This document shows, piece after piece, positions 24,631 through 46,009 of a stretch of DNA of 64,000 bases. Under the pieces are notes generated by a model, which did not search any database, had not been told where the DNA came from, and was given only the letters and a program-made list of their open reading frames with translations. The translations under genes and the position numbers were made by a program. How positions within the stretch are numbered: position 1 is the first letter of the stretch; each line of letters starts with the position of its first letter. The DNA comes from an uncultured candidatus Porisulfidus sp. (GTDB lineage: Bacteria > Pseudomonadota > Gammaproteobacteria > Poriferisulfidales > Poriferisulfidaceae), in NCBI GenBank assembly GCA_965221375.1, contig OZ244883.1:1107893-1171892 (forward strand), in the 5' to 3' direction.

Positions 24631-24641
24631 TGCAGAAAACT

Positions 24642-25544
24642 TTACGCTTCCTTATGACAATGCGCCAAGAAACCTTCAATCAACAATTCGGAAATATCCT
24701 GCTGACTGACTTGCTGGAGACCCCGCCATGCCGGAATGCTATTGATTTCGGTCACCCAAAACGCACCCTCCCGATCCTGCATCAGGTCGACTCCCGCATA
24801 GGACATGTCCACGGCCGATGTCGCGCGCTGGGCCAAATCCGACAACTGACTATCCAGAGCGGCAGGATAGCCTTGACCTCCATTGGCGATATTGCTGATC
24901 CAATCATTCCCTTCTCTTCGCATCGCTGCCTGTGCCCGGCCTTTCACCACCAACACCCGCCAGTCGCAACTGCCCGAAGCTGCCGACTCAATGTATTCCT
25001 GCAGATAGTACATGCCGTGATACAAATCATAATTCGGATGCGGCGTCTCACGGGTCAACCGCATCAATCCTTTGCCTTGAGATCCAAAGATAGGTTTCGC
25101 AACAATACTCTCGTGAGTCTCAAACCAATGCGCCAGGAAGGCGCGAGTTTGGCGAAGACTTCGGGCCACGAAAGTGCGCGGAGTCGGAATGCCGTGGTGG
25201 GCGAATAAAAAACTGGCGCGTACTTTGTCTACACTGCGCTCAATCGCACCGGCATCGTTGTAGACACCAATGCCCTTGGCCTCCAAGGCGTGAAGCACAT
25301 CCAAATAAAAAATAACCTCTTCAAGAGTGCCTCCCGGCACTTCTCGAACAAAAACACCTGCCGGCAATTGACCGTCGAAACCGGGCAAGTCAATGTGCGC
25401 GCCTTTGTGATCAATCTCGATACGGCACTCGCGCAAACTGACAAAACAGCTGTCCCGATCATGTCGCTTGAGCGCCTGCTGAAGTTGTTGCCCGTGCCAG
25501 CCCGGATGGTCCGTTACGATGGCGTAACGCCCAGGTGCGGTCAT
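24642..25544 (-). CDS. RimK-like ATP-grasp ligase, tetrahydromethanopterin:alpha-L-glutamate ligase-like (Orf5/MptN-like)
   Basis: 300 aa; ATP-grasp features IVAKPIFGSQGKGLMRL, DWRVLVVKGRAQAAMRR, WISNIANGG, GVDLMQD...WVTEINSIP; overlaps the mch start by 4 nt. Confidence 0.75.
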   Translation of the reverse strand: MTAPGRYAIVTDHPGWHGQQLQQALKRHDRDSCFVSLRECRIEIDHKGAHIDLPGFDGQLPAGVFVREVPGGTLEEVIFYLDVLHALEAKGIGVYNDAGAIERSVDKVRASFLFAHHGIPTPRTFVARSLRQTRAFLAHWFETHESIVAKPIFGSQGKGLMRLTRETPHPNYDLYHGMYYLQEYIESAASGSCDWRVLVVKGRAQAAMRREGNDWISNIANGGQGYPAALDSQLSDLAQRATSAVDMSYAGVDLMQDREGAFWVTEINSIPAWRGLQQVSQQDISELLIEGFLAHCHKEA

Positions 25545-26500
25545 TCTTCAAACGACTGCTTCAAAAGATCAGCATCCAAGGCTCCGGCCGCAAAGGAGCG
25601 GCCCGTCTGAATATTACTGACCAGTACCCGTGCCGGACTGAATAACATCGGATCGATTTTGAAAAAGTCGTATTCGTAATCTTTGAATATCGTGGCAAAA
25701 GGCTTGCCGTAATCGCGCGAAGTACTGCTCGGTAATTGTGTTGCTAAACGCTCCGCTTCCTCATCGCTCGATTGGACAAACAGTTTGACCTGTCCGCCGA
25801 ACAAAATCGCATCGTTGGTGCGACCCATCATTTTCACCATATCGGAACTATTCAGGGGTGGGACCGGCGCACTGCCGATGCCATCGATGACCTGTTGCAG
25901 ATCAAACCCCAATACATGCGTTTTATGCAGCGCCACTTCCAATACCCGACCCACAACCTGCACCGTGCCCGCGAGACTGGTGGTAGGTGTCAAAATCAAT
26001 GTGAGATTTTCGGGTTCGACATTACAGTCTCGACAGATTTTCTGGCGCACGGAAAGCGGCGGCACCCGGTCCACTTCCATCACCAGAGTCGTTGTGTCGT
26101 GCTCATCCCGATAGTCGAGCTCACTAAACAACTCTTCACGCTGCGCCAGGCAACGCGCCGGACCCGAGCCCAAGGCATGAAATTTTTCTTCCGAATCGTT
26201 CAAGCTCCAGCCGGCATACTGGCTCGCCAGGCAAGCCAATACCGGATGCTGGGTATGTATGTGAATGGACAACGGCCAATCATCCGGACGATCATAGGTG
26301 AAGGTCGCCTGTCCCAACCCGCCTAGACAAATTTCAGTAATTTGACGACCGGCTTCAATACCGCCCACCGTCTCAATGCCCGCATCAATAATCCGTACAC
26401 CTTCTTCCGTCCGGGATTTTTTGATGCGTAAATTTTCGGCATCCTCCACTAAATGACACACCAATGGATCGGCCAGTTGATTAATGCTAATGCGCGACAT
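25541..26500 (-). CDS. mch: methenyltetrahydromethanopterin cyclohydrolase
   Basis: About 319 aa from MSRISINQLADPLV; RIIDAGIETVGGIEAGRQITEICLGGLG matches Mch. The ORF-track start at 26533 adds 11 aa and lengthens the overlap with the upstream gene. Confidence 0.88.
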   Translation of the reverse strand: MSRISINQLADPLVCHLVEDAENLRIKKSRTEEGVRIIDAGIETVGGIEAGRQITEICLGGLGQATFTYDRPDDWPLSIHIHTQHPVLACLASQYAGWSLNDSEEKFHALGSGPARCLAQREELFSELDYRDEHDTTTLVMEVDRVPPLSVRQKICRDCNVEPENLTLILTPTTSLAGTVQVVGRVLEVALHKTHVLGFDLQQVIDGIGSAPVPPLNSSDMVKMMGRTNDAILFGGQVKLFVQSSDEEAERLATQLPSSTSRDYGKPFATIFKDYEYDFFKIDPMLFSPARVLVSNIQTGRSFAAGALDADLLKQSFEE

Positions 26501-27647
26501 GGACAACCTCTTGTGGTAGCTGTGCGGAGTCAAAATGTGCGGATAATTTTTCCAATACGTCGGCGCGCAAATCTTCTAATTCGGCAAGCACCGTGTCGGC
26601 ATCACTCCCGCGGCTGTGTACCGTGCATAAGGGATTCCCTTTTGACACTCTGGTTTGGGCGTGCGGCCGGTCTGCGGCCGCATCCGGCCACTGACAATGT
26701 GCGGAAATAATGACTTCTTGGGGCGCATAGACAACCCGCATCCCGTTCACGCCGCCTGCGTCAGGCACCAACACATCCCGCGCGATGTTCTTATCAAGAC
26801 ACGTTTGGATATGTGCTTGCATATAACCGTGCAGAAAACGTTCCTGATACAGCTCGCATGTTGCAGTTAAGCGGGGATTGAGATCAAGCATGAAGATACG
26901 GTGATCAGAAGTGAGAACAAAATCAAAGCCACAAAGGCCAAGCAAGCCCAAATCACACGTCAGATTGTCAGCAATCCATTGTACTTGCTCCAGCGCTTCG
27001 GGCGGCAATTCCACCGACCCAATGGCGCCGCCCCACATATAAGGCGTTGCCGCCTCTTCCGCCGCCAGCAGGCGGCTGACCCCAATCAATTCCGCCTCGG
27101 TCCCACCCGCCAAAAACAAGGCTGAATGTACGTCTCCCTCGCAATAACGCTGCCAATAAATCTCTTGATCGCGCCCCTCATACGAATCTGCCGGATGCAC
27201 ATGCGCTCCACCCGAACGCCGGTTACGTTTGACTAACCAACCCGATTGTGACTCGGGTGCAGTGTGACGCATCTCCGGCATCGGTATCTGCAAAACATCG
27301 CAGCGCGAAGTCAGTGATCGTGCATCCGTGCACTGGCGCAGGACTTCCTCGGAATTTCCAAGCACGTTGACATGCCTTTTCAGTTGAGTCAAGAGTCCCG
27401 GGTCTGCTTCGAAGCCCGAGCCGTAGATCAGCCGGTCGCCCGATTGGCTGCGCTCGCTGACCTGCCGCACAATTTCCGCAGTGAATTGCCCTTCCCGCAA
27501 CGGCACGACACGGCACTCATCGGCCTGCAGATCTTCGTCTGCAAACCCATCCAAAGCAATCACTGGACAATGCAGGTGCGCGGCCGCCTGGGCATGCGCC
27601 CGCGCTGAAGCCGACAGCACAAACAGGCGGCTTATTTGGCTGCGCAC
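26487..27647 (-). CDS. ATP-grasp superfamily protein of H4MPT-linked C1 clusters (OrfY/COG2232-like)
   Basis: 386 aa; ATP-grasp-like central region (LVKRNRRSGGAHVH, GLCGFDFVLTSDHRIFMLDLNPR). Position between mch and mtdB is typical for methylotroph H4MPT islands. Family assignment is moderate. Confidence 0.55.
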   Translation of the reverse strand: MRSQISRLFVLSASARAHAQAAAHLHCPVIALDGFADEDLQADECRVVPLREGQFTAEIVRQVSERSQSGDRLIYGSGFEADPGLLTQLKRHVNVLGNSEEVLRQCTDARSLTSRCDVLQIPMPEMRHTAPESQSGWLVKRNRRSGGAHVHPADSYEGRDQEIYWQRYCEGDVHSALFLAGGTEAELIGVSRLLAAEEAATPYMWGGAIGSVELPPEALEQVQWIADNLTCDLGLLGLCGFDFVLTSDHRIFMLDLNPRLTATCELYQERFLHGYMQAHIQTCLDKNIARDVLVPDAGGVNGMRVVYAPQEVIISAHCQWPDAAADRPHAQTRVSKGNPLCTVHSRGSDADTVLAELEDLRADVLEKLSAHFDSAQLPQEVVHVAH

Positions 27648-28531
27648 TGGCGCGCTACTTCAAACGCATGTTCGAAATGGTAATACACCGGCTCGTCCGT
27701 TTCGCGCATCTGTCGCAACAAAGTCTGTTGCGTCTGGTACTTCACATTGCCAATCGCCAAAGCGCCGATACCGACAGCGCCACTGCCGGAGTCCTCGATG
27801 GGTTTCGCATCATCCATCACCCCCAGGCCATGAATTCCCGAAGGCGGAACCGCATTGACATCCGCCGCCACTTTCAGACGTGGTGCACTTGCAATCTGTT
27901 CTTTTGACATCAATTGAATGCCTGCCGCGGCAGATGCAAAAATCACATCCGTCTCATTGAGCAAGGTATCCAACTGATCGTTGGCCTCACCGTCAATCGA
28001 CGTGCCGGCTTCGTATTTCTGATTGCATAGCTGCGCCGCCTGCTCACTTTTTTCTTTCTTGCGCCCCAAAATGGTGACGTGTGCGCCTGCGTCTGCGGCA
28101 ATGACCGCGGCGGCGGAGCCGACCGGTCCAGTGCCCCCGAGAGCCAAAATGCGCTGGTCTGAAAGTTCTGTGCCATGTACATCGCGAAGTGATTTTTCGA
28201 CTTTTGCGACCATGGCCGCTGCCGTCGTAAATGCCCCACTGGGATCCGCGAAAGCGGAAATCACAAAAGGCGGAACCATGGATTTCTGGCAGATTTCCAG
28301 CATTTCCATGGCCTGATGCATGTCACGACCGCCAATAAACAGCCCGGTCCGGCGCACGCCGCTGGGCCCGCGTGAAAAAATTGCATCTTCCACCAGTCCT
28401 TTGGTGTCTTCCACTTCCACCTGGATATACGGAATGCAGGCATCCCAGCCTGCGTCGTAAGCCATGTTGGCGTCAAAGGGGCTCAGATTCTTCGCAGAAG
28501 TGAGCATATGCAGTAAATATTTTTTGTCCAT
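27632..28531 (-). CDS. mtdB: NAD(P)-dependent methylene-tetrahydromethanopterin dehydrogenase
   Basis: 299 aa; GGRDM, LGGTGPVGSAAAVIAADAGAHVTILGRK Rossmann segment, overall collinear with MtdA/MtdB. Confidence 0.85.
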   Translation of the reverse strand: MDKKYLLHMLTSAKNLSPFDANMAYDAGWDACIPYIQVEVEDTKGLVEDAIFSRGPSGVRRTGLFIGGRDMHQAMEMLEICQKSMVPPFVISAFADPSGAFTTAAAMVAKVEKSLRDVHGTELSDQRILALGGTGPVGSAAAVIAADAGAHVTILGRKKEKSEQAAQLCNQKYEAGTSIDGEANDQLDTLLNETDVIFASAAAGIQLMSKEQIASAPRLKVAADVNAVPPSGIHGLGVMDDAKPIEDSGSGAVGIGALAIGNVKYQTQQTLLRQMRETDEPVYYHFEHAFEVARQCAAK

Positions 28532-28563
28532 AAAAAATGTATTCGAAAATTGAAGAGGTAATT

Positions 28564-29550
28564 TTAAGAAATTTGGCGCTGCAGCGGAATCCCTTCCGCC
28601 ATCTCACCTGTCATGACCTGGTGCCCATGGTTGCAGGCACGCACAACATGAACCAACACGTCCGGTTCCGCAAGCTGCAATTCGCGGGAAAGTTTTTGCG
28701 CCTGGGTTTCGCTCTCGGTCAACACAAACCCCGTGGGGCCCCACGAACTTTGTCCTATGCCGGCGAAGCCCAACTGTTCTGCTTTATTCAAACTCGAAGC
28801 AATGGCCGGATGGGTGAAGCGGCCTCCTTGAACCGGAGCGAAATGATCTCCGACCGTCTTCTGCAACTCACCGATGCCCTGCGCAAAGGGTTCGAAATTC
28901 CCCTCAAACAACGCCGGTAAAACACGCATCAAGGTCAACCGACATAGGTGGGCGGCTTTTGCTTCCGGAAGTTTCGGCAAATCATCAAAAGCGGTCCGCT
29001 CCGCGGTTCCCGACAATCCTTCCTCGCCACTTTTTGCTTGCAGCAATACAATCCGCCAATGCTCGGGAAAAGTCTGGCGCACGATAATGGGAGGCAATTT
29101 GGCAGGCTCGCCCCGGCCCCCATCCAGCAAAAATCCTCCTTGCTGAAACGCACCCCATCCAATGCCCGACCTGGATCCTCGGCCCAGTTCAATGCTGATA
29201 TCCCGAAGGCTCATCTCAATGTCAAACAGATATTTAATCGCTGCACCCACGGCCAATGCCAACTGCGTCCCGGATCCTAGTCCCACATGCCCCGGAATGG
29301 CTTCATGCATATGAATTTGGACCGCACCCGGACAATGATAATGCTGCATGACTCGACGCGCATAGTCACAGGCTCGCTGCGCATCCGGGCCGGTCGCTGA
29401 GAATTCGCCGGCAGGCTCGCAGGACAAGTGCGTGCAAAGTTCGCTCAGTGCTACCCCCATGCTTCCGAAATGCCGCCCCAGTCCCCCATGCATATCCAGA
29501 AAACCAAGGTGTAGTCGACCTTGAGTCTTGATTTGAACCGCTTTATTCAT
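28564..29550 (-). CDS. mptG: beta-ribofuranosylaminobenzene 5'-phosphate synthase (H4MPT biosynthesis), GHMP-kinase fold
   Basis: 328 aa; GHMP motif IPGHVGLGSGTQLALAVGAA; fixed member of the H4MPT island. Confidence 0.75.
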   Translation of the reverse strand: MNKAVQIKTQGRLHLGFLDMHGGLGRHFGSMGVALSELCTHLSCEPAGEFSATGPDAQRACDYARRVMQHYHCPGAVQIHMHEAIPGHVGLGSGTQLALAVGAAIKYLFDIEMSLRDISIELGRGSRSGIGWGAFQQGGFLLDGGRGEPAKLPPIIVRQTFPEHWRIVLLQAKSGEEGLSGTAERTAFDDLPKLPEAKAAHLCRLTLMRVLPALFEGNFEPFAQGIGELQKTVGDHFAPVQGGRFTHPAIASSLNKAEQLGFAGIGQSSWGPTGFVLTESETQAQKLSRELQLAEPDVLVHVVRACNHGHQVMTGEMAEGIPLQRQIS

Positions 29551-29667
29551 CGATCCGAGGAATGCGTCATCCGGAAATGATACCGGCGCGATTATGGAAA
29601 TATCCTAGCATAGTAGGACTCCCTCAACAATTCTAAAAATGAACGTGGCAACGCGGTAGTTCCGAGA

Positions 29668-33651: not shown

Positions 33652-34006
33652 TGGGGGTGACCCGGTTTCGACGGCGGTTACGGACTCCAAGGCGCATGCC
33701 GAGGCGGTAGCGACCTCGTAAAAAATGGCTGCAAAACATTAGTTGCCAACGACGACAACTACGCACTAGCGGCTTGATCCGCTAGTCATCCTTCCGGGAG
33801 ATGCTTGTGGATCCTGTTTGGATGTCGACTACACAAGCTCGCCTTGCAACCTGCCTGGAGTTGAAAGGTTAAACGAAACATCCAGACTGGCGATCATTAA
33901 GTCCTGTCCGTCGGGCGTTGATCGTAAGATAAAAGACGGTGCTAAGCATGTAGTGCCGAAGAGAAAGAACTGTTGGACGCGGGTTCGATTCCCGCCACCT
34001 CCACCA
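33652..34006 (+). ncRNA. ssrA: transfer-messenger RNA (tmRNA, SsrA)
   Basis: 5' GGGGGUGAC...UUCGACGG and 3' GGACGCGGGUUCGAUUCCCGCCACCUCCACCA form the tRNA-Ala-like acceptor/T-arm. Resume codon region GCAUGCCGAGG...; tag ORF GCC AAC GAC GAC AAC TAC GCA CTA GCG GCT TGA = ANDDNYALAA*. Collinear with E. coli ssrA. Confidence 0.93.
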
Positions 34007-34030
34007 ATCACCGGCTTCAAGAATTTCCAT

Positions 34031-34066
34031 AAGGCCTCGTAAAAAAGCTTTGCGAGGCCTTATCTT
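34031..34066 (+). terminator. rho-independent terminator after ssrA
   Basis: AAGGCCTCG - loop TAAAAAAGCTTTG - CGAGGCCTT followed by ATCTT, read directly. Confidence 0.7.
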
Positions 34067-34188
34067 ATGTGACTAGCGCGCAATATAGGCTTAAGGCATC
34101 CTTCTATATTTTGCATTTTAATAATATAAATGGTAATATTCTTCCATGTTATAATTTTTAAACATATAAGACCCAATTTGGGGTCCTT

Positions 34189-35346
34189 ATGTCAAAATCT
34201 AGTCAAATGGAACGAAGTGGCCACTTTCGGCATGTGCCTGCGGGGTATAGAGCATTCTTTCCTGCACTACTGCCACCCACGCCCCCTATTGCGATTGAGG
34301 GTAGCCTGCAACAGCTCCTTTCGAAGGCTGATCAAACCATGAGCGTGTTAAATGTGGTTTTTAGTGTTCTGCCTAACCCCGACCAATTAGTAGGAATGTT
34401 CATGCAGAAAGAGGCCTTGCTCAGCTCGCAGATTGAGGGTACCCAATCGTCCCTGATAGATGTGCTGGGAGTCGAAGAAGGTAATCCTCCAACAGCAGAT
34501 GTGGGAGAGGTCTTGAACTACCTGGCCGCCATGCGTCATGGCATGCAGCGTCTGCAAAAAAACGAACTTCCTCTGTGTGCTCGCCTGCTCAAAGAATTAC
34601 ATCTGAAATTGATGGCAGAGACAAGAGGAGGCGGCCCTCATCTCACTCCAGGTGAATTTCGCACTATGCAGAACTGGATTGGCGGCAGTAGCCCCGCCAA
34701 CGCTCGCTTTGTGCCACCCCCGGCCGATGAACTGGGCGTAATGTTCGGAGAGCTGGAGAAGTATTTCCATACCGAGAATGATACGCCGCCATTGGTGCAG
34801 TGTGCCCTGATTCACTACCAGTTTGAAACCCTGCATCCCTTCAATGATGGCAACGGGCGCTTGGGACGTTTGTTAATCAGCCTGTTTTTGTTAAGCAGAG
34901 GTGTGTTGGATCAGCCCATGCTGTATCTCAGCGCCTACCTGAAAATTCATCAACAAGAATATTACGATCGCCTGCAACAAGTGCGCACTGACGGTAGTTA
35001 TGAGAAATGGTTGACCTTTTTCTTGGAAGGTATTGTGGCTGTTAGTGATATGGTCATTGACACTACCCGCCGGATTCAAGCATTAGAGCGCAGTGATACA
35101 GACGCGATGACCACTGCCGGAACTGGCAGCGAAAGCATTGCCTTTATTCGTGCCCTGCTACAGCAGCCTGTTGTTTATGTAAGGGATATTGAAAGGCACT
35201 TGAACATCTCTTATGCCAAGGCCAATCAAATGGTGGCGTTGGCCGAAAAGATGGATATCCTGAAGCAAATCAGTCATGGCAAACGAAACCGGAAATACGG
35301 TTATCAAAAATATATTGAAATTTTGTCTGAAGGAACCGAAATCTAA
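34189..35346 (+). CDS. Fic-family protein (AMPylator-type, class II with N-terminal inhibitory motif) with C-terminal winged-helix domain
   Basis: 385 aa; Fic motif HPFNDGNGRLGRLL; inhibitory-helix-like SSQIEGTQ ((S/T)xxxE(G/N)) upstream of the active site; C-terminal ~70 aa HTH-like. Preceded by an AT-rich 120-bp spacer. Start could be ATG 34207. Confidence 0.85.
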   Translation: MSKSSQMERSGHFRHVPAGYRAFFPALLPPTPPIAIEGSLQQLLSKADQTMSVLNVVFSVLPNPDQLVGMFMQKEALLSSQIEGTQSSLIDVLGVEEGNPPTADVGEVLNYLAAMRHGMQRLQKNELPLCARLLKELHLKLMAETRGGGPHLTPGEFRTMQNWIGGSSPANARFVPPPADELGVMFGELEKYFHTENDTPPLVQCALIHYQFETLHPFNDGNGRLGRLLISLFLLSRGVLDQPMLYLSAYLKIHQQEYYDRLQQVRTDGSYEKWLTFFLEGIVAVSDMVIDTTRRIQALERSDTDAMTTAGTGSESIAFIRALLQQPVVYVRDIERHLNISYAKANQMVALAEKMDILKQISHGKRNRKYGYQKYIEILSEGTEI

Positions 35347-35542
35347 TGCCAAGGCCGCACTTTATATTCCTGGATAAATTACCCCTGTTTCCAAGTGCTT
35401 CACAGAATTGTCATAAAACATAAAACACATATAATAAATGAGCCGTCAACTTATCTGGTTACAGCGCTAGGAGAGTTTCTGCAGCAACTTAATTAGCTTC
35501 CTGCAGGCATAAACGTCAGGTGCTTTATCCAAGAGGTCCCTT

Positions 35543-38074
35543 ATGAAAAACAAACCGACAAAACACTGCAGCCGGACTGGACTTTTCTATGTCCTAGGCT
35601 ATCTGCTACTCGCTATAGCCCCTCCCCTTCACGCCGAGGAAGCTGAAAACGAGGAAGCCGCGGAAACTCCCGTTATCCCAATTAAAGTGGAAGCCGCTGA
35701 GATCAGCACCCAGCCTGGCCATACGAAATATGACGCCGAAGTAATTCAGAACATGCCTACGGGAGACTCTCACCTGTCCGACCTGTTGCGCCTGAATCCG
35801 GCTGTGGACTTTTCCCGAGAAAGCGACATATCCGGCAGTGCCACTCTACGTCCCGACGAAATTTCCATACATGGACAACGGTTTTACCAGAACCTTTTTC
35901 TTATTGACGGCATTGATACTACCAACGACTTGAATCCTGCATCGACTAATGACATTTTCAGTAACCCCAGTCTCTTCTTTCCGAATGGGGGAAGTTCCCC
36001 CCAGGGGTATTACGTTGACGTAGAACTGCTAGATAATGTCCAAGTTTTCGACAGTAATATTCCAGTCGAGTACGGGGGCTTCACCGGTGGAGTAATCTCT
36101 GCCGAACTGAAATCCTACGAGGGCGAAGACAAGTTTTCATGGCGCTTTGGAATAAAGCGAGATGAATGGGAGAGATATCATGTCAATGAGGGCGACCTTA
36201 CAGCTGCAGATTACTACGGTGGAGTCTACACACCCGACTATCAAAAAACCAATTTTAGAGTTAATGTGCAGCGGGAGATTGCTGAGAATTGGGGTTTAAA
36301 CTTAAGCGTGTCGCGACGTGTTTCACGCTTTGATCAGCGTTACGACAAAATAATTTCTGCAACAGGCCCTGTAGAAGACCGTACTGATAGACGGACCATC
36401 GAATACGAGGATAGAGTCGACAATATTCTCGGGCGAGTGGACACCGTGTGGGAAGGGAAAAAACTCGGACTCTCGTTCCGCTACGCTCGACGTCGACACG
36501 ATGGTCTAACCGCAACAAATTACGATGGGAGATTCGAGAAAGACCACGACGGTTACGGAATAACTGCTGACCTTGAAGGTGAGCGACCTTCCGGCCTATG
36601 GAAACTTAAGTTTGGCGCCGATCAGTTATCCGATGAATTAGACAGCGAGGACAATCTCTTTAGCTCCCATGAATCTGCGGAAGCGAGCCTGCTAGACTTG
36701 CAATACGAAGGTTCATACGGTGACACCAAGCAGAGGCAAACACGTCTCACTTTGAAACCGAAGTGGATTTTTAATACGCAGCATTTTTCTGGTGCCGAGC
36801 ACGACATTACTGCAGGTGGCGAAATGCGCTATACGAAAAGTTTCTACGAACGGCCGAGCAAGGTCGTCTATGAAAAATACGATTGCCGAACAGATAGTGC
36901 CGACCGTCTCGGTTGCCAAGACTATGATGGAGATGGTATCAGTGACCGTGGCGACGAATACCTTGCCCGAGTTGTCGACTATCTTCCCGGTAAAGTGAAT
37001 CTCAGCTACGGTGAATGGGCACTCTATGCTGAAGATCGGATGAACTTTGGACGGTTAAAGGTCAACGCTGGTTTGCGGGCAGATCGTAACAGCTTTCTCG
37101 AAAATCTGGATGTAGCACCACGCCTTTCCTTGGACTGGAACGTCTTTGGCGATGGACGAACTCACATCACTGCCGGTGCCAATCGCTACTATGGGCGTAG
37201 TTTCATGCGCCTTCAGCTGAACGATGCGATCTATGGGTGGCGAGAATGGCGTGATTACAACCAAGACGGCTCTTTAAGGCGTCTCCGCACCTACGACAAC
37301 AGAAGCGGAGCTTCGGACTTGGACACCCCCTATTCAGATGAGTGGATGCTCGGTTGGAGCCAAATATTCGGCCCGCTTACTCTCCGCATGCAGTATGTTG
37401 ATCGTAAAAGTCGGGATGGGATAACTCGCCGATATGAAAATATCGATGATGACAGTGCCCGCGAATACTACTACACAAACGACGGACGCAGTTCGACTGA
37501 AAGTACGACATTTGAAGTGACCACTGAAACCCCCAAAAGCCCTGGCGCTGCTTGGACCCAATTCACACTGGCGTTGAATTACAAAGATTCTGAAAGCAAC
37601 TCCCAAGATGACGCTGGCTACGACGAAGCAATCGACGAAGAACTCATTTATTACAAAGGTCGAGTGATTTCATTTGACCAACTCCCAGCATGGGATTACA
37701 ACATTCCATTCGGAGCTCGTTTGTTTGCAACGACCCATATCCCCCAGTGGAACGTGGTTTGGTCGAACTTTTTCAACCTGCGCCGGGGTGGAACCATTGC
37801 CCAAGATTCACGTAGGGACTGCGACGATAGAGACCCAGTTACAGGTGAAGTTTATTGTGACGGCGATTATGACATCTACGAAGATACTGACTTCAAAAGT
37901 TTGGTCATCGTAGACACCAAAATTCAATGGCAACCCCGTATCCTCGACCAGTCATTCTACGTGAAAGTTGAAGTCAAAAACGTGTTTGATAAAGTCATCA
38001 ACGTCAGCACCACCACTCGCAGATCCTACACAAGTGGGCGACTTTGGTGGATTGAGACGGGCATGGATTTCTGA
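35543..38074 (+). CDS. TonB-dependent outer-membrane receptor
   Basis: 843 aa; signal peptide ...APPLHA, TonB-box-like ETPVIPIKVEA, plug motif VEYGGFTGGVISAELKS, long beta-rich body, C-terminal aromatic residue (..GMDF). Spot GC count ~40%. Confidence 0.8.
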   Translation: MKNKPTKHCSRTGLFYVLGYLLLAIAPPLHAEEAENEEAAETPVIPIKVEAAEISTQPGHTKYDAEVIQNMPTGDSHLSDLLRLNPAVDFSRESDISGSATLRPDEISIHGQRFYQNLFLIDGIDTTNDLNPASTNDIFSNPSLFFPNGGSSPQGYYVDVELLDNVQVFDSNIPVEYGGFTGGVISAELKSYEGEDKFSWRFGIKRDEWERYHVNEGDLTAADYYGGVYTPDYQKTNFRVNVQREIAENWGLNLSVSRRVSRFDQRYDKIISATGPVEDRTDRRTIEYEDRVDNILGRVDTVWEGKKLGLSFRYARRRHDGLTATNYDGRFEKDHDGYGITADLEGERPSGLWKLKFGADQLSDELDSEDNLFSSHESAEASLLDLQYEGSYGDTKQRQTRLTLKPKWIFNTQHFSGAEHDITAGGEMRYTKSFYERPSKVVYEKYDCRTDSADRLGCQDYDGDGISDRGDEYLARVVDYLPGKVNLSYGEWALYAEDRMNFGRLKVNAGLRADRNSFLENLDVAPRLSLDWNVFGDGRTHITAGANRYYGRSFMRLQLNDAIYGWREWRDYNQDGSLRRLRTYDNRSGASDLDTPYSDEWMLGWSQIFGPLTLRMQYVDRKSRDGITRRYENIDDDSAREYYYTNDGRSSTESTTFEVTTETPKSPGAAWTQFTLALNYKDSESNSQDDAGYDEAIDEELIYYKGRVISFDQLPAWDYNIPFGARLFATTHIPQWNVVWSNFFNLRRGGTIAQDSRRDCDDRDPVTGEVYCDGDYDIYEDTDFKSLVIVDTKIQWQPRILDQSFYVKVEVKNVFDKVINVSTTTRRSYTSGRLWWIETGMDF

Positions 38075-38142
38075 CCACGGGTATGCTGCTGGCGACAGCA
38101 GAGACACAGCTTTGATTTGGATGTATGCTCGGCAGAGCATGA

Positions 38143-39117
38143 TTGGCTAGATGCCAAACATCATGCCCCGCTGAACTCAAATTTAATTTTCGGCTGGCAT
38201 TTATGAATATTCCAAGTGATTTGAGTGCCGGCACTAAAGGCGCAATCGCCTCTCGCCACTGGTTTGCCTCCACCGCAGCGGCAAGTTTGCTGCATATATG
38301 CGTCTTGGGGTTACTCTCTTTGACCACTGTCGAGGGAGCCGAAGATCAAGGCGAACAAGGTGTTGAAATTGACTTCGGCATGCTTGGCGACATGGGCGAA
38401 ATGGTGGAAACTTTAGCGCAGAGCCAAGCCGCCGCCGAAGCCTATTCGAAGGTGATGCCCGAAGAAAAAATTGAAGAGCCCATAGACCCGCCTAAAGCAC
38501 CCGAGCCTGTGCCTGAACCGGAAACCGAGACTAAACCCAAAGAAGAAAAAAAGATAGTCAAAAAGGCGGAAGTCGTCCAGCCCGTCATAGAATCGGTTCA
38601 AAAAAAGAAATCCGAAAAAAACATTAGAAAGCCTGTCCCGGAGTTTGTACATAAACCTGCCCCACCATGGCCAAAGACGCATACCCAACCCGCCAAACCG
38701 GTAACCGCACGTCAGAAGCCGGCACAAACACCGAGCCGGCCTGCGATCGATTCGCCTGCCGTAGCGAAAATATCTACCGGACAGGCCCAGGCAAAATCGA
38801 TGGGAGGTAACCCCGGTGCGGAACGCGCCTATCTTGCCTTGCTGGCCGCCAAATTGCGTAGCAAGAAATTTTATCCGCTATCGGCAAGACTCAACAAAGA
38901 TGAAGGGGAAGTAACTCTGCTCCTTACGCTCGGCCGCGATGGGCAGGTCCTGGATGCACGCATCGGCAGAAGCTCCGGGATTTCTGTGCTCGACGAATCT
39001 GTTCTGCAGATGCTGGAGAAAGCCAAACCCCTGCCCCCTTTCCCGTCGAGCATGCAGCAATCAAGATTTACTGTACGTATTCCTGTTTCTTTTAAACTGG
39101 ACCAGTTTTTTAACTAG
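38143..39117 (+). CDS. tonB: TonB energy-transducer
   Basis: 324 aa (or ~304 from MNIPSD at 38203); N-terminal TM with SxxxH (ASLLH), Pro/Glu/Lys-rich spacer (PEPVPEPETETKPKEEKK), C-terminal TonB domain (YPLSARLNKDEGEVTLLLTLGRDGQV). Confidence 0.8.
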   Translation: MARCQTSCPAELKFNFRLAFMNIPSDLSAGTKGAIASRHWFASTAAASLLHICVLGLLSLTTVEGAEDQGEQGVEIDFGMLGDMGEMVETLAQSQAAAEAYSKVMPEEKIEEPIDPPKAPEPVPEPETETKPKEEKKIVKKAEVVQPVIESVQKKKSEKNIRKPVPEFVHKPAPPWPKTHTQPAKPVTARQKPAQTPSRPAIDSPAVAKISTGQAQAKSMGGNPGAERAYLALLAAKLRSKKFYPLSARLNKDEGEVTLLLTLGRDGQVLDARIGRSSGISVLDESVLQMLEKAKPLPPFPSSMQQSRFTVRIPVSFKLDQFFN

Positions 39118-39185
39118 CGGAATCGGGTCCAAGCGATTTGGCGTCAGGTCTCTGGCGGAATCCTACCTTGCCCGTGTCTATGTAA

Positions 39186-40271
39186 CTAGCGCCCTGGTAG
39201 TTGAGGGGGTCTCACAATGTGGGGACGGCGACCTAGCGTGCCGAGAAAAGCTTCGAGGGCCTGAATTTCGCTTTCTTCCAAGTCCAGAGGCCTGATAAGT
39301 GGAGAAAGTTCAGGTTCCTCGGGAACTCTTTTTTTTGAAAACGAGATGCCGCGGTTATACATGCGAAGAATACCCGTGAGATTGTCAAACAATCCGTTAT
39401 GCATCCAAGGCCCGGTAAATGCGAGGTCCCGCAATGAGGGGGTGCGAAATTTGCCGCGGTCGCTCACTTCACCAGTTACGTAAAAGCGGCCCAAATCCTC
39501 AAACCGACGACCGGTATAACTGAGTCCTGTGTGATGAAATTGGCCATCCGAAAACAGCGAGCCATGATGGCAGTTCATGCATCGCGCCTTGGTGCGAAAT
39601 AAATGCAGTCCTTCAATTTCCTGATCTGATAACCGGTCGTATTCCCCTCGGACGAATTGATCAAACGGACTGGTCCGAGACCGAATCGTTCGGATAAATG
39701 CGCTCATTGCTTGAGCGATGCGATCGAGATTAATTTCGGGAGTGCCAAACGCATTTTGAAATTCCGTAGCGTAACCATCAATCTTGGATATCCGCTCGAT
39801 CACGTGATCCAAGTTTGCCTTCATCTCAATAGAACTTGCAATCGGTATGGGAATCAATGACAGCAGGTCGTCCGCCCGCCCGTCCCAAAAGAGCTTGTCG
39901 AAATACGCCACATTCAGGAGCGTCATCGTATTGCGGCGTCCGGAGAGGCGATCGTGTCCGAAAGCCACTTCTCGGCCATCAGTCCAGCCAAGTTGTGATT
40001 CGTGGCAGTTCGCACAAGCAATCTGTTGGGAGCCCGACAAGCGTGGGTCAAAAAACAGGATTCTGCCAAGTCGCTCAATTTCTTTAGTCTGCCACGAGAC
40101 TTTAGCTGGGGGTTGAAGTTCTCCCAACTCGACAGCATGGACCCCCGCATCTACTTCAAAAGGAGGCCATGCCTCGACACCTTGTCGATACTGATCTACC
40201 AGACCTGCCGAAAGCCCAGTGCAGGCCGATAGGCATACATGAAACAAAATCAGTTTATGTACAAATTTCAT
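39186..40271 (-). CDS. di-haem cytochrome c peroxidase family lipoprotein (CCP/MauG/MbnH family)
   Basis: 361 aa; lipoprotein signal ...CLSAC, two CxxCH haem sites (CANCHE, CMNCHHG), conserved PSLRD and W/M residues of bacterial CCPs. Confidence 0.85.
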   Translation of the reverse strand: MKFVHKLILFHVCLSACTGLSAGLVDQYRQGVEAWPPFEVDAGVHAVELGELQPPAKVSWQTKEIERLGRILFFDPRLSGSQQIACANCHESQLGWTDGREVAFGHDRLSGRRNTMTLLNVAYFDKLFWDGRADDLLSLIPIPIASSIEMKANLDHVIERISKIDGYATEFQNAFGTPEINLDRIAQAMSAFIRTIRSRTSPFDQFVRGEYDRLSDQEIEGLHLFRTKARCMNCHHGSLFSDGQFHHTGLSYTGRRFEDLGRFYVTGEVSDRGKFRTPSLRDLAFTGPWMHNGLFDNLTGILRMYNRGISFSKKRVPEEPELSPLIRPLDLEESEIQALEAFLGTLGRRPHIVRPPQLPGR

Positions 40272-40411
40272 GATTGTCCGCAGTTCCTGCGCTGCTTACT
40301 CGCGTAACACCTCGCTACTCCATGCACATCTTTATTTTACTTTCAAACGTATGAAAGCGTCTCGACCGCCTCAACTGTACCTGCAAAACCCCCATAGAAA
40401 AGAACCGCACA

Positions 40412-40834
40412 TCAACTTTCTTCCGGCCTGCTGAATAAAGTAACTTTAGAAATTTGAAGCTGGCGCAGAATCTCGAACAATCGGTCCAGATTTTTAGCCT
40501 TAACCTCTTTATCTGCTTTCACGATGACCCCTTCTGAACCTGCATTTGTTGCTCCCAAAATATCCGCATCCAAAGATTCGTACGTGACAGGCTTGCCATT
40601 GATACTGAGTGAATTATCTGTTTCCAGAATCAGCACAACCGGAGCATGTACTAATGGTTTTTTACTACTTGAAACCGGAGGATCAATATTACGTCCTCGA
40701 GGATCCGTAATCTGCCCAGCAATCATATAAAACACCAGCATCAAAAACACGATGTTGACAAGTGGAATCATGTTATCGTCACCACCACGTTTAGAACGTG
40801 GCGTATATAACTCGTTCGAAAACATACCGCCCAC
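40412..40834 (-). CDS. exbD: ExbD/TolR-family biopolymer transport protein
   Basis: 140 aa; N-terminal MIPLVNIVFLMLVFYMI TM, periplasmic ExbD domain. Confidence 0.8.
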   Translation of the reverse strand: MGGMFSNELYTPRSKRGGDDNMIPLVNIVFLMLVFYMIAGQITDPRGRNIDPPVSSSKKPLVHAPVVLILETDNSLSINGKPVTYESLDADILGATNAGSEGVIVKADKEVKAKNLDRLFEILRQLQISKVTLFSRPEES

Positions 40835-40841
40835 AATGAAC

Positions 40842-41264
40842 TTATTCAGTTTTTTCAGAGAATGAGTTCCCCAAGGTCACATGTTTGAGACCAATCCTCT
40901 TGAGACTTTCAATGGCGGAGAGGATGGTTTGCAGATTTGCATTTTCTTCCGGCAAGACGACATGGGACTTTTCGAATTCGAACTCAAAAATGCTTGGGTC
41001 TGTGAGTTCTTTGTAGTGCGCAACTGAAAAAGTGCTGTCGTGGAACCTCAGGCCACCCACTTCATCCAGCCACACAATTTGCGGCAACTGAACATCCTCA
41101 CTAAAACTTGAAGTCGGAGAATGAAGGTCTACTGCCCGCCATTGAGTAAACGTAAAGGACAGCATGAAAAACAGCAATAATATGAATACTACGTCAATTA
41201 GCGCGGTTAAACTGATTGTGTGACGCCTTGCGCGATAAAGCGGCTCCGCATTCATAGATGCCAT
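40842..41264 (-). CDS. exbD: ExbD/TolR-family biopolymer transport protein (second paralogue)
   Basis: 140 aa; LTALIDVVFILLLFFML TM segment; tandem ExbD as in ExbB-ExbD1-ExbD2 systems. Confidence 0.78.
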   Translation of the reverse strand: MASMNAEPLYRARRHTISLTALIDVVFILLLFFMLSFTFTQWRAVDLHSPTSSFSEDVQLPQIVWLDEVGGLRFHDSTFSVAHYKELTDPSIFEFEFEKSHVVLPEENANLQTILSAIESLKRIGLKHVTLGNSFSEKTE

Positions 41265-41279
41265 CTCAAATCACGTCAC

Positions 41280-41948
41280 TTACTGCCCATTGGCTCTTGC
41301 CTGGATCGTAAACAGGCGTTCCAAATCATCTTGTATCCCCGCAGCATACCGCTCAACCCGGCGCTCAAACCAACTATGAGCCAGCGCAACCGGGATGGCG
41401 ACTGCCAAACCCACCGCCGTCGTCAACAGAGCCTTCCATATCCCTCCGGAGAGTACTGCAGGATTAACTTGCGAACCGGCTGCCTCCATAGCCTGAAAAG
41501 CCTCAATCATGCCCAGAACCGTGCCAAATAACCCCAAAAGCGGGGATAAAGTGAAAATCACTTCGAGCGGACGCAGATAATTCCCTAATTTCCGAATCAC
41601 CGTTTTAGCAACGCGCATGGACTCCGCTCTTACTTCGTCCAAGGAAAGATTCGAATTTTCAAAAAGCTTCAAAGTTTCATATGAAATATACGCGCGCGGG
41701 TCCTTTTGCCCCTGCAGCAGTAACATCGCCTGTGGTCTGTCTCCACTTTCAATAAGGTCGAGGGCTTGAGTGCTATCCGTCTTCGAAGTTTGCCTTATCG
41801 AAAAAAATTGCCAAAATTTGACCAGACTGATAGTAAGGGCAACTACTGAAAAACAACCTAATAGCCAAACAACGGGTCCCCCGAGAACCAAAAATTTACT
41901 AAGGTTTTCAAACATGACATGCATGTAAGCCATAATGAAACTTGCCAA
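41280..41948 (-). CDS. exbB: ExbB/TolQ/MotA-family proton-channel protein
   Basis: 222 aa; three TM segments, LSPLLGLFGTVLGMIEAF signature. Confidence 0.82.
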   Translation of the reverse strand: MASFIMAYMHVMFENLSKFLVLGGPVVWLLGCFSVVALTISLVKFWQFFSIRQTSKTDSTQALDLIESGDRPQAMLLLQGQKDPRAYISYETLKLFENSNLSLDEVRAESMRVAKTVIRKLGNYLRPLEVIFTLSPLLGLFGTVLGMIEAFQAMEAAGSQVNPAVLSGGIWKALLTTAVGLAVAIPVALAHSWFERRVERYAAGIQDDLERLFTIQARANGQ

Positions 41949-42174
41949 ATGCGGGTTTGTCTAAGAAAAAATAGGAATTATTTAACTAAAAGAACGAGAA
42001 TAGCTCTTTTCAGTACAAGTATTATAGATTGCGTTTCGCCAGATCCGTGGAATGCCGATGAAGATACTGCTTCTTTTCTCTAGTTTCCGGGATAGAGAGG
42101 CTTACATTTTCTCCGAAATTATTAAAATACGCAATAACGCCAATTCCTCACGTCTCTATAAGAAACCTCGCGCT

Positions 42175-42498
42175 ATGACTTTTGTTGTGACCGAAGACTG
42201 CATCAAATGCAAATACACCGATTGTGTAGAAGTCTGCCCGGTCGAATGCTTCCATGAAGGCCCGAATTTTCTCGTCATAGACCCGGAGGAATGCATTGAC
42301 TGTGCACTGTGTGTGCCGGAATGTCCGATTGATGCGATTGTGCCGGAGAAAGACTTGCCTGAAAATCAAAAAGACTTCCTTGAACTGAATGCCAACCTCT
42401 CAAAAGAATGGCCGGTGATCGCTCTGCAGAAGCCTCCCCCTCCCGATGCGGACGAGTGGCGCAACATACCAAATAAAAGAGACTTGCTTGAGGCTTGA
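42175..42498 (+). CDS. fdxA: 7Fe ferredoxin (Azotobacter FdxA-type)
   Basis: 107 aa from ATG 42175: [51 protein letters not shown], i.e. CxxCxxxC...CP and CxxCxxCxxxCP. The ORF-track N-terminal 41 aa (from 42052) do not look like coding sequence. Confidence 0.85.
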
Positions 42499-45357
42499 GT
42501 GAAACTGCTCATATGCCCCACGCACCAATTACTGAGTGCTTATTGCGCGGAAACGATTATTAACCGGCATGCCGAACTGCTGCCGGACCTGACTCGATTA
42601 ACGCTGCTCACTCCAAATGCAACCTCGGCTGTTGCTTTTCGACGGGCCTTACTTCTCGAAGCTCAAAAAAGAGACTTTACCGGGTTGATATTGCCCGATA
42701 TTCAGCCTCTGCGCACTTGGGTCCAAACGAGTCAAGACGCCCCCAAAGCTGAAAGCTCTTTGTCCGAACTGTTGGATTTGTGGCAGGCGTTGCGCACTTC
42801 TCCACATGTGCTCAACCAGTCTAATCCTTGGGCCACCGCTCGCGAACTACTCACACTGTTCGAAGGCCTTTGGCTAAGCGACGATTATTTTCTGCAGGAT
42901 GAGGACCAGATGACAGCTCGGTTGCAGCAAGCCTATGGCATTCCTGACAGCTCCTCTGTAAAGTTCCGAAATGAAACCCATGTTGTCCACAATCTGTGGC
43001 GGGCCTGGGAAGCTGGATCAAAAGAACTGCTAAGTTCCAGTCAGCAATATCGTGAAGCCCTTCGAAAGGTCCCGGAAGCAGTAGAGACGGAAGCTTTATA
43101 CCTGTGCGGCTATGAACGATTGATGCCTGCGGAAATACAAGCGCTGCAGCAAATAAGCCGAAACATACCCGTGACCTGTCTGACGCGACCGCGTCATTAC
43201 ATTCGATCAGATCTGCCTGTGGAGGAAATTTCTGCGGCCCCTTCGCCGTATGCGTATGCCCTTGAGCAGGCATTTAATCTTGGTAGCGAGGAAAATTTGA
43301 GAAAGCGGGCACAGGCCTGCCGAAAAATCTACCCTCAAAGCCCTCTCTCCGGTCGATTGCATTTTTTTGCCGCTGAGCAAGCCGAGCCTCATGCCAGTGC
43401 AATTACACTCCAAATCCGCCGCTGGATTCACGAAAAGAGGCAAAACATCGGGCTTGTAACCGAAGACCGAAAACTGGCACGCCGGATACGTGCTCTTTTG
43501 GAACGCCACGACATTTACGTCAATGATTTTGCGGGTTGGGCTCTGTCGACCACGAGTGTCGCCGGTGTCATCGTGCATTGGCTGGATTGCCTTGATCAAG
43601 ATTTTTACTATCGCGTGATGCTCGATGTATTGAAATCACCATTTGTGAAATTCAAGAATATTAAGCCCCATCATCTAAAACAGGTCAAAGAACTGGAAAC
43701 GCTGCTGCACAGAAACCACACCTCCCAAGGTTGGGCGCATTATGAATGTCTGGCAACTCAAAAACCGGAACTGCAGAATTTATTGCGTGCGGTAAACCAA
43801 GCTGCCGAGCCTTTAACAACCCTTCGATCAAACCCCACCGGGCCCGAATACATCACTGCCCTACTCAAAAGCCTTGACCGGCTGGGTTGCATCGCGAGTT
43901 TTTCTGATGACGAGGCGGGTCGTCAAGTTTTGGAGAAGCTTGAAGCCATTCGTTTTCAGTTAACCGACAACACCGCAAATTTGCCCAAACATCAGTGGCG
44001 TTCAATTATTTGCCATTTCCTGGAAAACCAGGATTTCCGGCCTGAAACTTCACAGCCTGGCGTGTCTTTGATTAATCTCAATCAATCCCATATGGCTCAA
44101 TTCGATTATTTGATTGTTGCCGGTATGGATGCTCGGCATTATCCTCACACTTCTTCATCTTTCATTTTTAACGACACCGTCCGGAAAGATTTGGGCTTGC
44201 CAACTGAAGCTGAACAGCGGGAACTGGATTTGCAGCGCTTTTCAGCCTTGCTGATGTCCACCGAAAAAGTGTTGATGACATATCAGAAAAACGAGGAGGA
44301 CGAGCCTTTGCTGCCAAGCACCTGGTGGACTCAAATAAAGGTTTTCAACAAACTTGCTTACAAGAAACCGCTGGACGATCAATGGCTTCCCTCCATGCTC
44401 TCCTGGCAAACAAATGAATCTCTCTACCCACCCCAGAAAGCCCCTCGCCCTGATTCCGTCCAATCCATGCCGCAGCCTGCAGCATGTGCGGACTTGCTCC
44501 CCGAAAAAATATCAGCGAGGGCTCACCAGGACCTAATCCACTGCCCTTATCGTTTTTATGTGCATTACATGCTGGATATTCGAAAGATTGACACGATCCG
44601 TGAAGAAATGAATCCCGCAGATTTTGGCAACTTTGTCCATAGATGTCTTGAAGCTTTTCACAAGGATGTTCCAGGCCTTCCCGGACCTTGGGAAAAGCCT
44701 ATCACCGGGAATGAAGGTGATGCGCTGGATACGCTGGAAAAAATTGGTCGGCACAGTATCGAACGCCATGATGACAACCTTCCCCGAAAAGTTTTTTTGG
44801 AACGCTGGAGACAAATTTCACGACGTTATCTGGAAATGCAGAAAAATATCGAAACCGAAAGAAGTATTGTTGAAGTTGAAAATAAATCCGAGCGTGACCT
44901 TGGGGGCCTCACTCTGCATGGGCGCATTGATCGCATCGACCAGACTCGGAATTCAAACAAAATTGTGATCGACTACAAGACCGGAAGTACTCCCATTAAA
45001 AATCCAGAAATACAAGCGGGAGAAGACGTTCAGTTAATCAGCTATACCTTGATACACGATGCGATTGATCAAGTCGAATATTGGTGGCTCAATTCCAGCA
45101 ACACGTACACATCTCATGAACGCACTACCCTATCGAACAAAACATTGCTCGATGTGCGCAACAAAGTTTGCGACCGGCTGTTAAGCCTCTACCAGCGCCT
45201 GCAGGAAAACGCGAGTCTCCCGGCGAACGGCAGTCAAGAAGCATGTAAGTATTGCGATGCGAAAGGCATTTGCCGAAAAGATGTCTGGCAAGATCAAGAC
45301 CAGACAATAAAGCAAGCAGGAATAACTATTGAGACGAAGACGGCAACTCTTCCATGA
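42499..45357 (+). CDS. AddB-like PD-(D/E)XK nuclease with Fe-S 'iron staple', N-terminal inactivated-helicase-like region
   Basis: 952 aa starting with GTG directly after the fdxA stop (TGA GTG). No Walker A seen. C-terminal RecB-type nuclease motifs (GRIDRID...IVIDYKTG) flanked by Cys before (HCPYRFY) and CxxCxxxxxC after (CKYCDAKGIC), the AddB four-Cys arrangement. No AddA/UvrD-like partner in the window. Confidence 0.65.
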   Translation: MKLLICPTHQLLSAYCAETIINRHAELLPDLTRLTLLTPNATSAVAFRRALLLEAQKRDFTGLILPDIQPLRTWVQTSQDAPKAESSLSELLDLWQALRTSPHVLNQSNPWATARELLTLFEGLWLSDDYFLQDEDQMTARLQQAYGIPDSSSVKFRNETHVVHNLWRAWEAGSKELLSSSQQYREALRKVPEAVETEALYLCGYERLMPAEIQALQQISRNIPVTCLTRPRHYIRSDLPVEEISAAPSPYAYALEQAFNLGSEENLRKRAQACRKIYPQSPLSGRLHFFAAEQAEPHASAITLQIRRWIHEKRQNIGLVTEDRKLARRIRALLERHDIYVNDFAGWALSTTSVAGVIVHWLDCLDQDFYYRVMLDVLKSPFVKFKNIKPHHLKQVKELETLLHRNHTSQGWAHYECLATQKPELQNLLRAVNQAAEPLTTLRSNPTGPEYITALLKSLDRLGCIASFSDDEAGRQVLEKLEAIRFQLTDNTANLPKHQWRSIICHFLENQDFRPETSQPGVSLINLNQSHMAQFDYLIVAGMDARHYPHTSSSFIFNDTVRKDLGLPTEAEQRELDLQRFSALLMSTEKVLMTYQKNEEDEPLLPSTWWTQIKVFNKLAYKKPLDDQWLPSMLSWQTNESLYPPQKAPRPDSVQSMPQPAACADLLPEKISARAHQDLIHCPYRFYVHYMLDIRKIDTIREEMNPADFGNFVHRCLEAFHKDVPGLPGPWEKPITGNEGDALDTLEKIGRHSIERHDDNLPRKVFLERWRQISRRYLEMQKNIETERSIVEVENKSERDLGGLTLHGRIDRIDQTRNSNKIVIDYKTGSTPIKNPEIQAGEDVQLISYTLIHDAIDQVEYWWLNSSNTYTSHERTTLSNKTLLDVRNKVCDRLLSLYQRLQENASLPANGSQEACKYCDAKGICRKDVWQDQDQTIKQAGITIETKTATLP

Positions 45358-46009
45358 CTTCACACAAAAACATAAGGTCCGCAAACGATTGAGCCTTGTT
45401 GCGAGGACTTCGAATCAAATAAGCCGGGTGGTAGGTCGGAACCACGAAAATATTTGAGTCCGGCAAAGCGTGAGCTTGGCCACGTAATTTCCCGATCGGT
45501 GTTTGCACATCCAGAAGATTTTGGGCGGCGATGGCGCCGAGCGCCAAAATAACTTTCGGTTTGATCAGTTCGATTTGCTGGTTGAGGTGCTTACGGCATT
45601 GATGGGCTTGTTCGGGTGTAGGGTTTGCATTATGGGGAGGACGGCATTTCAAAATATTCGCGATATAAACCTGCTCCCGCTTCAAACCGATGGCTTTGAG
45701 CATGCTGTTGAGCAGTTGGCCGGCTCGTCCTACAAACGGTTCACCTTGAGCATCTTCATCGGCTCCAGGTGCTTCACCCACCAGCATCAACTGGGCATTT
45801 TGATCCCCTACTCCGAATACCGTGTTTTTCCGCTCCCTATGCAGTTCGCAGTCCACACAAGACTCTACTTCCCTCTGCAGTTTGCGCCAGTGTCGCAACG
45901 GCAGCATTTCGGGGTCCAGGGTCAGCGTGGACGACCCGCGACGTTTCCATCGATTGAGTTCCAATTCGCGCAAGTGCGCATCCGTCGGAGCGCGTTGAGG
46001 CTCTGGCAT
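45326..46009 (-). CDS. family-4 uracil-DNA glycosylase (4Fe-4S type)
   Basis: 227 aa; CVDCELH...VFGVGDQNAQLMLVGEAPGADEDAQGEPFVGRAGQLL...HPAYLIR, signature of UdgA-type UDGs. The N-terminal ~35 aa may be an extension. Convergent 32-nt overlap with the AddB-like gene. Confidence 0.85.
   Translation of the reverse strand: MPEPQRAPTDAHLRELELNRWKRRGSSTLTLDPEMLPLRHWRKLQREVESCVDCELHRERKNTVFGVGDQNAQLMLVGEAPGADEDAQGEPFVGRAGQLLNSMLKAIGLKREQVYIANILKCRPPHNANPTPEQAHQCRKHLNQQIELIKPKVILALGAIAAQNLLDVQTPIGKLRGQAHALPDSNIFVVPTYHPAYLIRSPRNKAQSFADLMFLCEVMEELPSSSQ

Follow-up and report, generated by a model that had tools for sequence, protein, structure and literature searches.

A 7Fe ferredoxin gene abutting addB in a 'Candidatus Porisulfidus' genome: probable core of an older gammaproteobacterial repair-gene cluster

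The AddAB helicase-nucleases provide the closest described counterparts of the locus considered here, above all that of Bacillus subtilis, whose AddB subunit is chain B of PDB entries 3U4Q and 4CEJ. In the epsilonproteobacterium Helicobacter pylori the two subunit genes are unlinked: Amundsen et al. are said to have placed addA (HP1553, RecB-like/AddA) and addB (HP1089) at separate loci in 2008. HP1089 is the AddB of that organism (PMC8144621). The ferredoxin gene fdxA is known from another repair setting; in Pseudomonas aeruginosa mutS is encoded alongside fdxA, and the two are predicted to be operonic (PMC8744996). Here we analyze a 64-kb stretch of DNA from an uncultured 'Candidatus Porisulfidus' species (the whole stretch is called the window below), in which fdxA runs directly into the gene for a 952-residue AddB-like nuclease (addB), which in turn converges with the gene for a family-4 uracil-DNA glycosylase (UDG). 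Each of the three proteins is a member of a well-known family, and the locus itself is ordinary. The reading that we put forward, and hold to be fairly probable, is that fdxA and addB would form a two-gene operon, the core of an older cluster, whose junction is conserved by promoter dependence and translational coupling, with AddA supplied from elsewhere.

The addB gene (42499..45357, + strand) has a GTG start and encodes the predicted nuclease and iron-sulfur (Fe-S) subunit of a proteobacterial-type AddAB helicase-nuclease. Its product is matched in Pfam by PDDEXK_1 alone (residues 671-926, E 3.6e-34), which delimits a RecB-family PD-(D/E)XK nuclease domain (44509..45276, + strand) with the catalytic residues D811, D825 and K827, the last two lying in the motif IDYKTG (D825-Y826-K827). 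This motif, D811, H714, Q845 and Y849 are invariant in an alignment of AddB relatives (81 of 81). As in AddAB, the nuclease is flanked by one N-terminal cysteine, C682 (codon at 44542-44544, + strand), and three C-terminal ones, C916 (45244-45246), C919 (45253-45255) and C925 (45271-45273), spaced as CxxCx5C (C916-x2-C919-x5-C925); C682 is again invariant (81/81) and the other three are kept in 80 of the 81 proteins. We predict that these four residues bracket the nuclease with a 4Fe-4S iron staple. The RecB-type core and the four-cysteine staple had been recognized in the original prediction, and the family match and the alignment agree with it on both; its statement that the N-terminal region carries no Walker motif also holds, since a motif scan of the whole protein found neither Walker A ([AG]xxxxGK[ST]) nor the shorter GK[ST]. 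Residues 1-670 (42499..44508, + strand) make up this predicted helicase-like, inactive superfamily 1 region, in which the relatives share the conserved motifs VTEDRKLARRxRALLER and GWALSTTS.

The family assignment is less straightforward by sequence than by fold. All NCBIfam scores fall below their cut-offs, the best being addB_alphas (TIGR02786, 180.6 versus 486.5), followed by TIGR03623 (104.5 versus 299.6), addB_Gpos (34.2 versus 903.7) and rexB (23.5 versus 718), which sets the protein apart from the curated AddB-type families and suggests a separate, divergent gammaproteobacterial subfamily. Database names are generic or partial ('PD-(D/E)XK nuclease family protein' at NCBI, 'helicase/nuclease subunit B' at JGI). 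Sequence and family-profile searches of the PDB got no further than weak similarity to the nuclease domain of AdnAB, and the predicted structure was therefore needed to recover AddB. In Foldseek, the top five PDB matches of the AlphaFold (AF2) model (mean predicted local distance difference test score, pLDDT, 82) are all copies of chain B, the AddB of B. subtilis (4cej_B, 3u44_B, 3u4q_B, 4ceh_B and 4cei_B), at E ~1e-28 over ~1090 aligned columns, i.e., at full length, with the helicase cores of AdnA, RecC and UvrD below them. Over the structural alignment the two proteins are just 12-13% identical, and the window protein differs from the B. subtilis one in having no Walker A. Judged by its modeled fold, its motifs and its cysteine staple, we take the 952-residue protein to be a genuine AddB.

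The junction between the two genes (42488..42501, + strand) reads ...GAG GCT TGA|GTG AAA..., so that the TGA stop of fdxA abuts the GTG start of addB and a GAGG Shine-Dalgarno-like motif lies 5 nucleotides (nt) upstream of the GTG, within fdxA. No further in-frame ATG occurs before codon 138 of addB, close to the roughly 135 codons first estimated, and the GTG start is supported by the closest AddB homologues, which begin at the aligned position (MELVACP.../MKQTICP...). A transcription terminator between the genes, which the original prediction had named as evidence against it, did not appear: a scan of the window found no terminator-like site there, nor was one seen in the three related loci with the longest gaps, although such scans, for promoters as for terminators, yield matches no denser than chance and count for little. 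The sequence thus has the marks of a coupled operon, namely genes on the same strand, an abutting stop and start, a Shine-Dalgarno motif inside the upstream gene and no intervening terminator. As the original prediction proposed from the abutment, fdxA and addB are likely co-transcribed and translationally coupled.

The start of fdxA needs correction. The gene was first read from the open reading frame (ORF) listing as 42052..42498 (+ strand), a protein of 148 amino acids. The NCBIfam equivalog model FdxA_Protbact (NF045490) recognizes the product at 162.7 bits (cut-off 135), and Pfam adds Fer4 and, for the C-terminal extension, DUF3470 (E 9e-17); the equivalog model covers ORF residues 42-143 and nothing before residue 42, and the homologous proteins annotated in related contigs have 107 residues. 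The identification of fdxA therefore stands, whereas its start at 42052 does not: the 148-residue version is rejected, and the gene most likely occupies 42175..42498 (+ strand), encoding a canonical 7Fe ([3Fe-4S]+[4Fe-4S]) ferredoxin of 107 residues. The preceding 42052..42174 is probably the leader or promoter region. A sigma-70-like promoter candidate, CTTACA-16-TAAAAT (42101..42128, + strand; 9/12 consensus match, a chance-level density), lies inside the 148-residue version of the ORF, a position compatible with the start at 42175. The nine cysteines of FdxA, at positions 9, 12, 17, 21, 25, 40, 43, 46 and 50, follow the pattern of Azotobacter vinelandii ferredoxin I (FdI), to which FdxA is 61% identical. 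With its equivalog-level match and this cysteine pattern, the protein resembles FdI and the proteobacterial FdxA family at large.

Conservation of the pair among relatives carries most of the argument. One genome per GTDB species was scanned with the AddB family alignment, and the best 80 of 395 relatives were taken as the locus set; their AddB proteins are 31-49% identical to that of the window. The nearest (41-49%) come from 'Candidatus Porisulfidus' and related sponge-associated metagenome-assembled genomes, and the remainder (31-35%) from Thiohalomonas, Thiogranum, Thioalkalivibrio, Sulfuricaulis, Sulfuriflexus, Acidiferrobacterales and others. In 68 of these 80 loci, spread over many gammaproteobacterial lineages, an fdxA whose product is 60-86% identical to the window FdxA immediately precedes addB in the same orientation, so the fdxA-addB adjacency is conserved well beyond this genome. 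Within the Porisulfidus clade the junction is as tight as in the window: 13 related loci read TGAATG, TAAATG or TAGATG (0-nt gap) or TAATG (1-nt overlap), and outside the clade the gaps are short. Some 40 related loci have mutS upstream on the same strand, often immediately before fdxA, an arrangement like that of P. aeruginosa. On the other side of addB, 74 loci extend far enough downstream to be scored, and 43 of them continue on the same strand with a gene for a protein of 1110-1190 residues with UvrD-helicase, UvrD_C and PDDEXK_1 domains, which some sources name AddA and which has, on its predicted domains, the architecture of AddA; as in AddAB, then, orthologues of the window AddB are paired with a gene for a UvrD-plus-nuclease protein. 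From the frequency of fdxA and addA beside addB and the common presence of mutS upstream, the ancestral arrangement would therefore be mutS-fdxA-addB-addA. Literature searches pairing fdxA with addB or AddAB returned no description of an fdxA-addB(-addA) operon, and papers mentioning Porisulfidus hold nothing on repair genes; in having fdxA before addB and no adjacent addA, the window departs from AddAB loci as we found them described.

The two junctions can be compared directly. Among loci below 40% AddB identity to the window, fdxA and addA both stand beside addB in 34, fdxA alone in 13, addA alone in 8 and neither in 2. On a neighbor-joining tree of 81 AddB proteins, a break between addB and addA marks at least nine distinct lineages, including the window with the Porisulfidus clade, and Thioalkalivibrio, and a break between fdxA and addB about six or seven; locus L022 is tallied as lacking fdxA, though N masking hides the stretch 5' of its addB. 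By these counts the fdxA|addB junction has held up no less well than the one between addB and addA. In Thiohalomonadaceae-type loci without fdxA, a SixA-like phosphatase (His_Phos_1), in some cases with a CHAD protein, sits between mutS and addB (L046 9363-9875; L056 8565-9867; also L077, L081 and L025). In Thioalkalivibrio thiocyanodenitrificans (L002 1-6350), fdxA-addB lies a few kb from recX, recA, cinA and mutS, a layout that resembles the recA-recX...mutS-fdxA region of Pseudomonas and suggests a very old repair-gene neighborhood around fdxA.

The original prediction described the nuclease as partner-less. Within the 64-kb window this is so, as motif scanning, tblastn and annotation of large ORFs found no UvrD/AddA-type ORF; as a biological property it does not hold, given the orthologues that are followed by an AddA-type gene. 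The absence extends to the clade, in that no AddA was found within +/-10 kb of addB in 14 Porisulfidus-clade loci on chromosomes of 1.6-2.0 Mb. A search of a protein database with an AddA profile had no Porisulfidus chromosome among its best 120 of 7243 matches, a result that is uninformative. The lack of AddA in the window and near addB in the clade, together with the retention of all nuclease and cysteine residues, is what one would expect if addA had been lost from a reduced, symbiont-related genome and AddB served, on its own or together with a different helicase, as an Fe-S nuclease of the Cas4 kind. We regard such a loss as distinctly unlikely. The full helicase-like N-terminal region of ~670 residues is kept with its invariant motifs, a region that in B. 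subtilis acts within AddAB, and the fold match spans the whole of AddB chain B. At every addB|addA break, moreover, addB retains its catalytic and cluster residues and the long N-terminal region, and intermediates exist in which addA lies 5.1 kb (L073) or 2.7 kb (L079) away; at least nine separations, such intermediates and intact addB genes are better explained by relocation of addA than by repeated loss with perfect retention of addB, and unlinked addA and addB are known in H. pylori, which the window resembles in having addB without an adjacent addA. We infer that addA is probably encoded elsewhere in the window's genome, and that the nuclease looks partner-less because the mutS-fdxA-addB-addA cluster broke up in this lineage.

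Many loci that retain addA have a non-coding spacer of 300-850 nt between it and addB (e.g., L024 12913-13758; L028 12865-13654; L034 12901-13513; L035 12901-13581; L037 12667-13289), in which no consistent ORF and no Rfam match were found. A promoter for addA alone, or some element not described before, may lie in this spacer, whose presence fits the idea that addA is driven from a promoter of its own and moves more readily. In Thioalkalivibrio, and specifically there, a Ysc84-like gene follows addB in the place that addA holds elsewhere (L002 13064-13657; L062 11328-11906; L038 3072-3677).

What the persistence of fdxA beside addB implies for function is a separate matter. The original prediction had suggested a ferredoxin dedicated to Fe-S repair nucleases, and this has to be given up, as FdxA matches a canonical equivalog and most fdxA genes do without addB. 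Among 80 metagenomic fdxA loci (64-75% identical), 68 have at least 600 nt of downstream sequence, and an addB-like gene follows fdxA in just three of them (3/68), in contrast to the window and its 68 related loci. FdxA is accordingly the ordinary, widely distributed proteobacterial 7Fe protein, a ferredoxin of general use and not a nuclease-specific accessory. The companion statement, that fdxA sits beside mutS in other proteobacteria, fares better, as mutS is upstream in 14 of 46 metagenomic loci and P. aeruginosa has the same pairing (PMC8744996). On this comparative evidence, addBA appears to have been placed behind fdxA in one gammaproteobacterial radiation, and fdxA is often found among repair genes.

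A weaker form of functional coupling is compatible with a general ferredoxin. FdxA might give electrons to AddB, for assembly or repair of the 4Fe-4S staple or for its redox poise on DNA, with equimolar co-translation selected and other clients served as well, so that the ferredoxin would not be dedicated. The pair has been kept in 68 of 80 loci, 27 of which lack an adjacent addA, just 8 loci have addA without fdxA, and stop and start abut or overlap throughout the window's clade; fdxA also belongs to a repair neighborhood (mutS, addBA, and recA-recX nearby in L002). In H. pylori, moreover, the FdxA protein HP0277, which has been proposed to take part in Fe-S maturation, contacts AddB HP1089, NifS and Nfu in bacterial two-hybrid assays (PMC8144621), and its gene adjoins one annotated addB (PMC2984482). 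That ferredoxin is of a different family, a YfhL/Alvin-type 2[4Fe-4S] protein unlike the 7Fe FdxA of the window, it belongs to an epsilonproteobacterium, and the contacts are growth-only two-hybrid signals, which are weak evidence. Further points tell against coupling: fdxA mostly occurs without addB, six or seven AddB lineages have no fdxA upstream (with the SixA-like phosphatase and CHAD protein in several), and dependence of the operon on the fdxA promoter accounts for the conservation equally well. The cluster of AddB is also regarded as structural, reportedly by Yeeles et al. in 2009. That FdxA is a physiological partner of AddAB in many sulfur-oxidizing and related gammaproteobacteria, building, repairing or redox-switching the AddB staple, thus strikes us as doubtful. 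If it were true, the partnership would account for fdxA and addB staying joined, frequently with stop and start codons that overlap, after addA and mutS had left, and for the position of fdxA beside repair genes (mutS, addBA) across Proteobacteria.

The UDG gene (udg, 45326..46009, - strand) encodes 227 amino acids and scores 210.7 bits against a cut-off of 125.3 for NCBIfam TIGR00758 (UDG_fam4), with a Pfam UDG match at 2.3e-39. Its translation shows VGEAPG (GEAPG) and YHPAY (HPA) motifs, and Cys51, Cys54, Cys122 and Cys138 fit the CX2C...CX15C pattern, all as in UdgA-type enzymes. By these features it is, as first recognized, a genuine family-4 (UdgA-type) enzyme, predicted to carry a 4Fe-4S cluster. 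Its 3' end overlaps that of addB by 32 nt, as noted originally (45326..45357, both strands), which is the one respect in which it stands out among family-4 UDG loci. We attach no significance to this overlap: it is found in the window alone, relatives having gaps of 7-171 nt at that point, and it covers the non-conserved C-terminal tail of AddB (residues 930-952), where the model has pLDDT <50.

The original prediction had grouped the genes as three Fe-S proteins in a row, and these genes do lie side by side in the window, as they do in 14 loci of the Porisulfidus clade. That they constitute a DNA-repair module of three Fe-S genes, with the ferredoxin serving the 4Fe-4S UDG as well, is highly improbable. 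The UDG gene lies on the opposite strand, its overlap with addB is peculiar to the window, and it adjoins addB in this one clade only, with none of ~65 more distant loci having a UDG there. The wider flanks of the UDG-bearing loci (ssrA, purL, leuA and liv genes) are syntenic within the same clade, so that the adjacency is best seen as inherited gene order.

Returning to the two-gene operon, we envisage that addB has no promoter of its own, that it would be transcribed from the fdxA promoter, and that it would be translated by coupling at TGA|GTG; dependence on that promoter together with coupling is enough to explain the evolutionary stability of the fdxA|addB junction. mutS and addA would have moved away in the window's lineage, and AddB, by analogy with known AddAB, may work within an AddAB complex in double-strand-break resection and RecA loading, with AddA provided from another locus as in H. 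pylori. The convergent UDG would be a lineage-specific neighbor. Several points weigh against this interpretation. Co-transcription of fdxA and addB is a proposal from gene layout, and a location of addA elsewhere in the window's genome, or on the complete Porisulfidus chromosomes, is something we infer as probable. The AddB protein, falling below the cut-offs of the NCBIfam AddB-type models, appears to represent a distinct subfamily. Finally, pairing in 85% of loci, outlasting the departure of mutS and addA, is also to be expected if AddB needs FdxA, and the two-hybrid contact in H. pylori points the same way, though through a different ferredoxin type (PMC8144621).

The wider surroundings differ between the window and its relatives. 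In the window, the transfer-messenger RNA gene ssrA (33653-34006, + strand; tag peptide ANDDNYALAA) separates purL from the fdxA region. In Porisulfidus relatives (ssrA at L001 9279-9634, L009 9255-9612 and L013 9278-9632) it ends ~42 nt before fdxA, making ssrA, fdxA and addB contiguous. Relative to them the window has an insertion of ~8.2 kb between ssrA and fdxA (34007-42174), with a guanine-plus-cytosine content of 0.46-0.49 versus 0.52-0.55. The insertion encodes a Fic protein (34189-35346), a Plug-domain TonB-dependent receptor without an NCBIfam match (35543-38074), a TonB-like protein (38143-39117), a di-haem CCP/MauG-like peroxidase (39186-40271, - strand), and two ExbD/TolR proteins with ExbB (40412-41948, - strand). 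It has the look of an island that entered beside ssrA, but no integrase was found in it, nor direct, att-like repeats of at least 14 nt linking its two ends. On the far side, tetrahydromethanopterin-linked one-carbon (C1) genes (MCH, Mpt_N, ATP-grasp and GHMP kinase) flank purL in the syntenic relative L001 (1-4716), and the corresponding place in the window is 24000-29600.

Overall, the conserved fdxA-addB(-addA) cluster is a modest comparative observation, for which we found no paper describing such an operon. For annotators, it means that an 'orphan' AddB-like nuclease in genomes of this kind probably belongs to an addAB pair that has been split. The cluster also offers a cheap and concrete test of what the 7Fe FdxA is for and why it is placed among repair genes, and it is relevant to the debate over whether the Fe-S clusters of repair enzymes are redox-active or purely structural.

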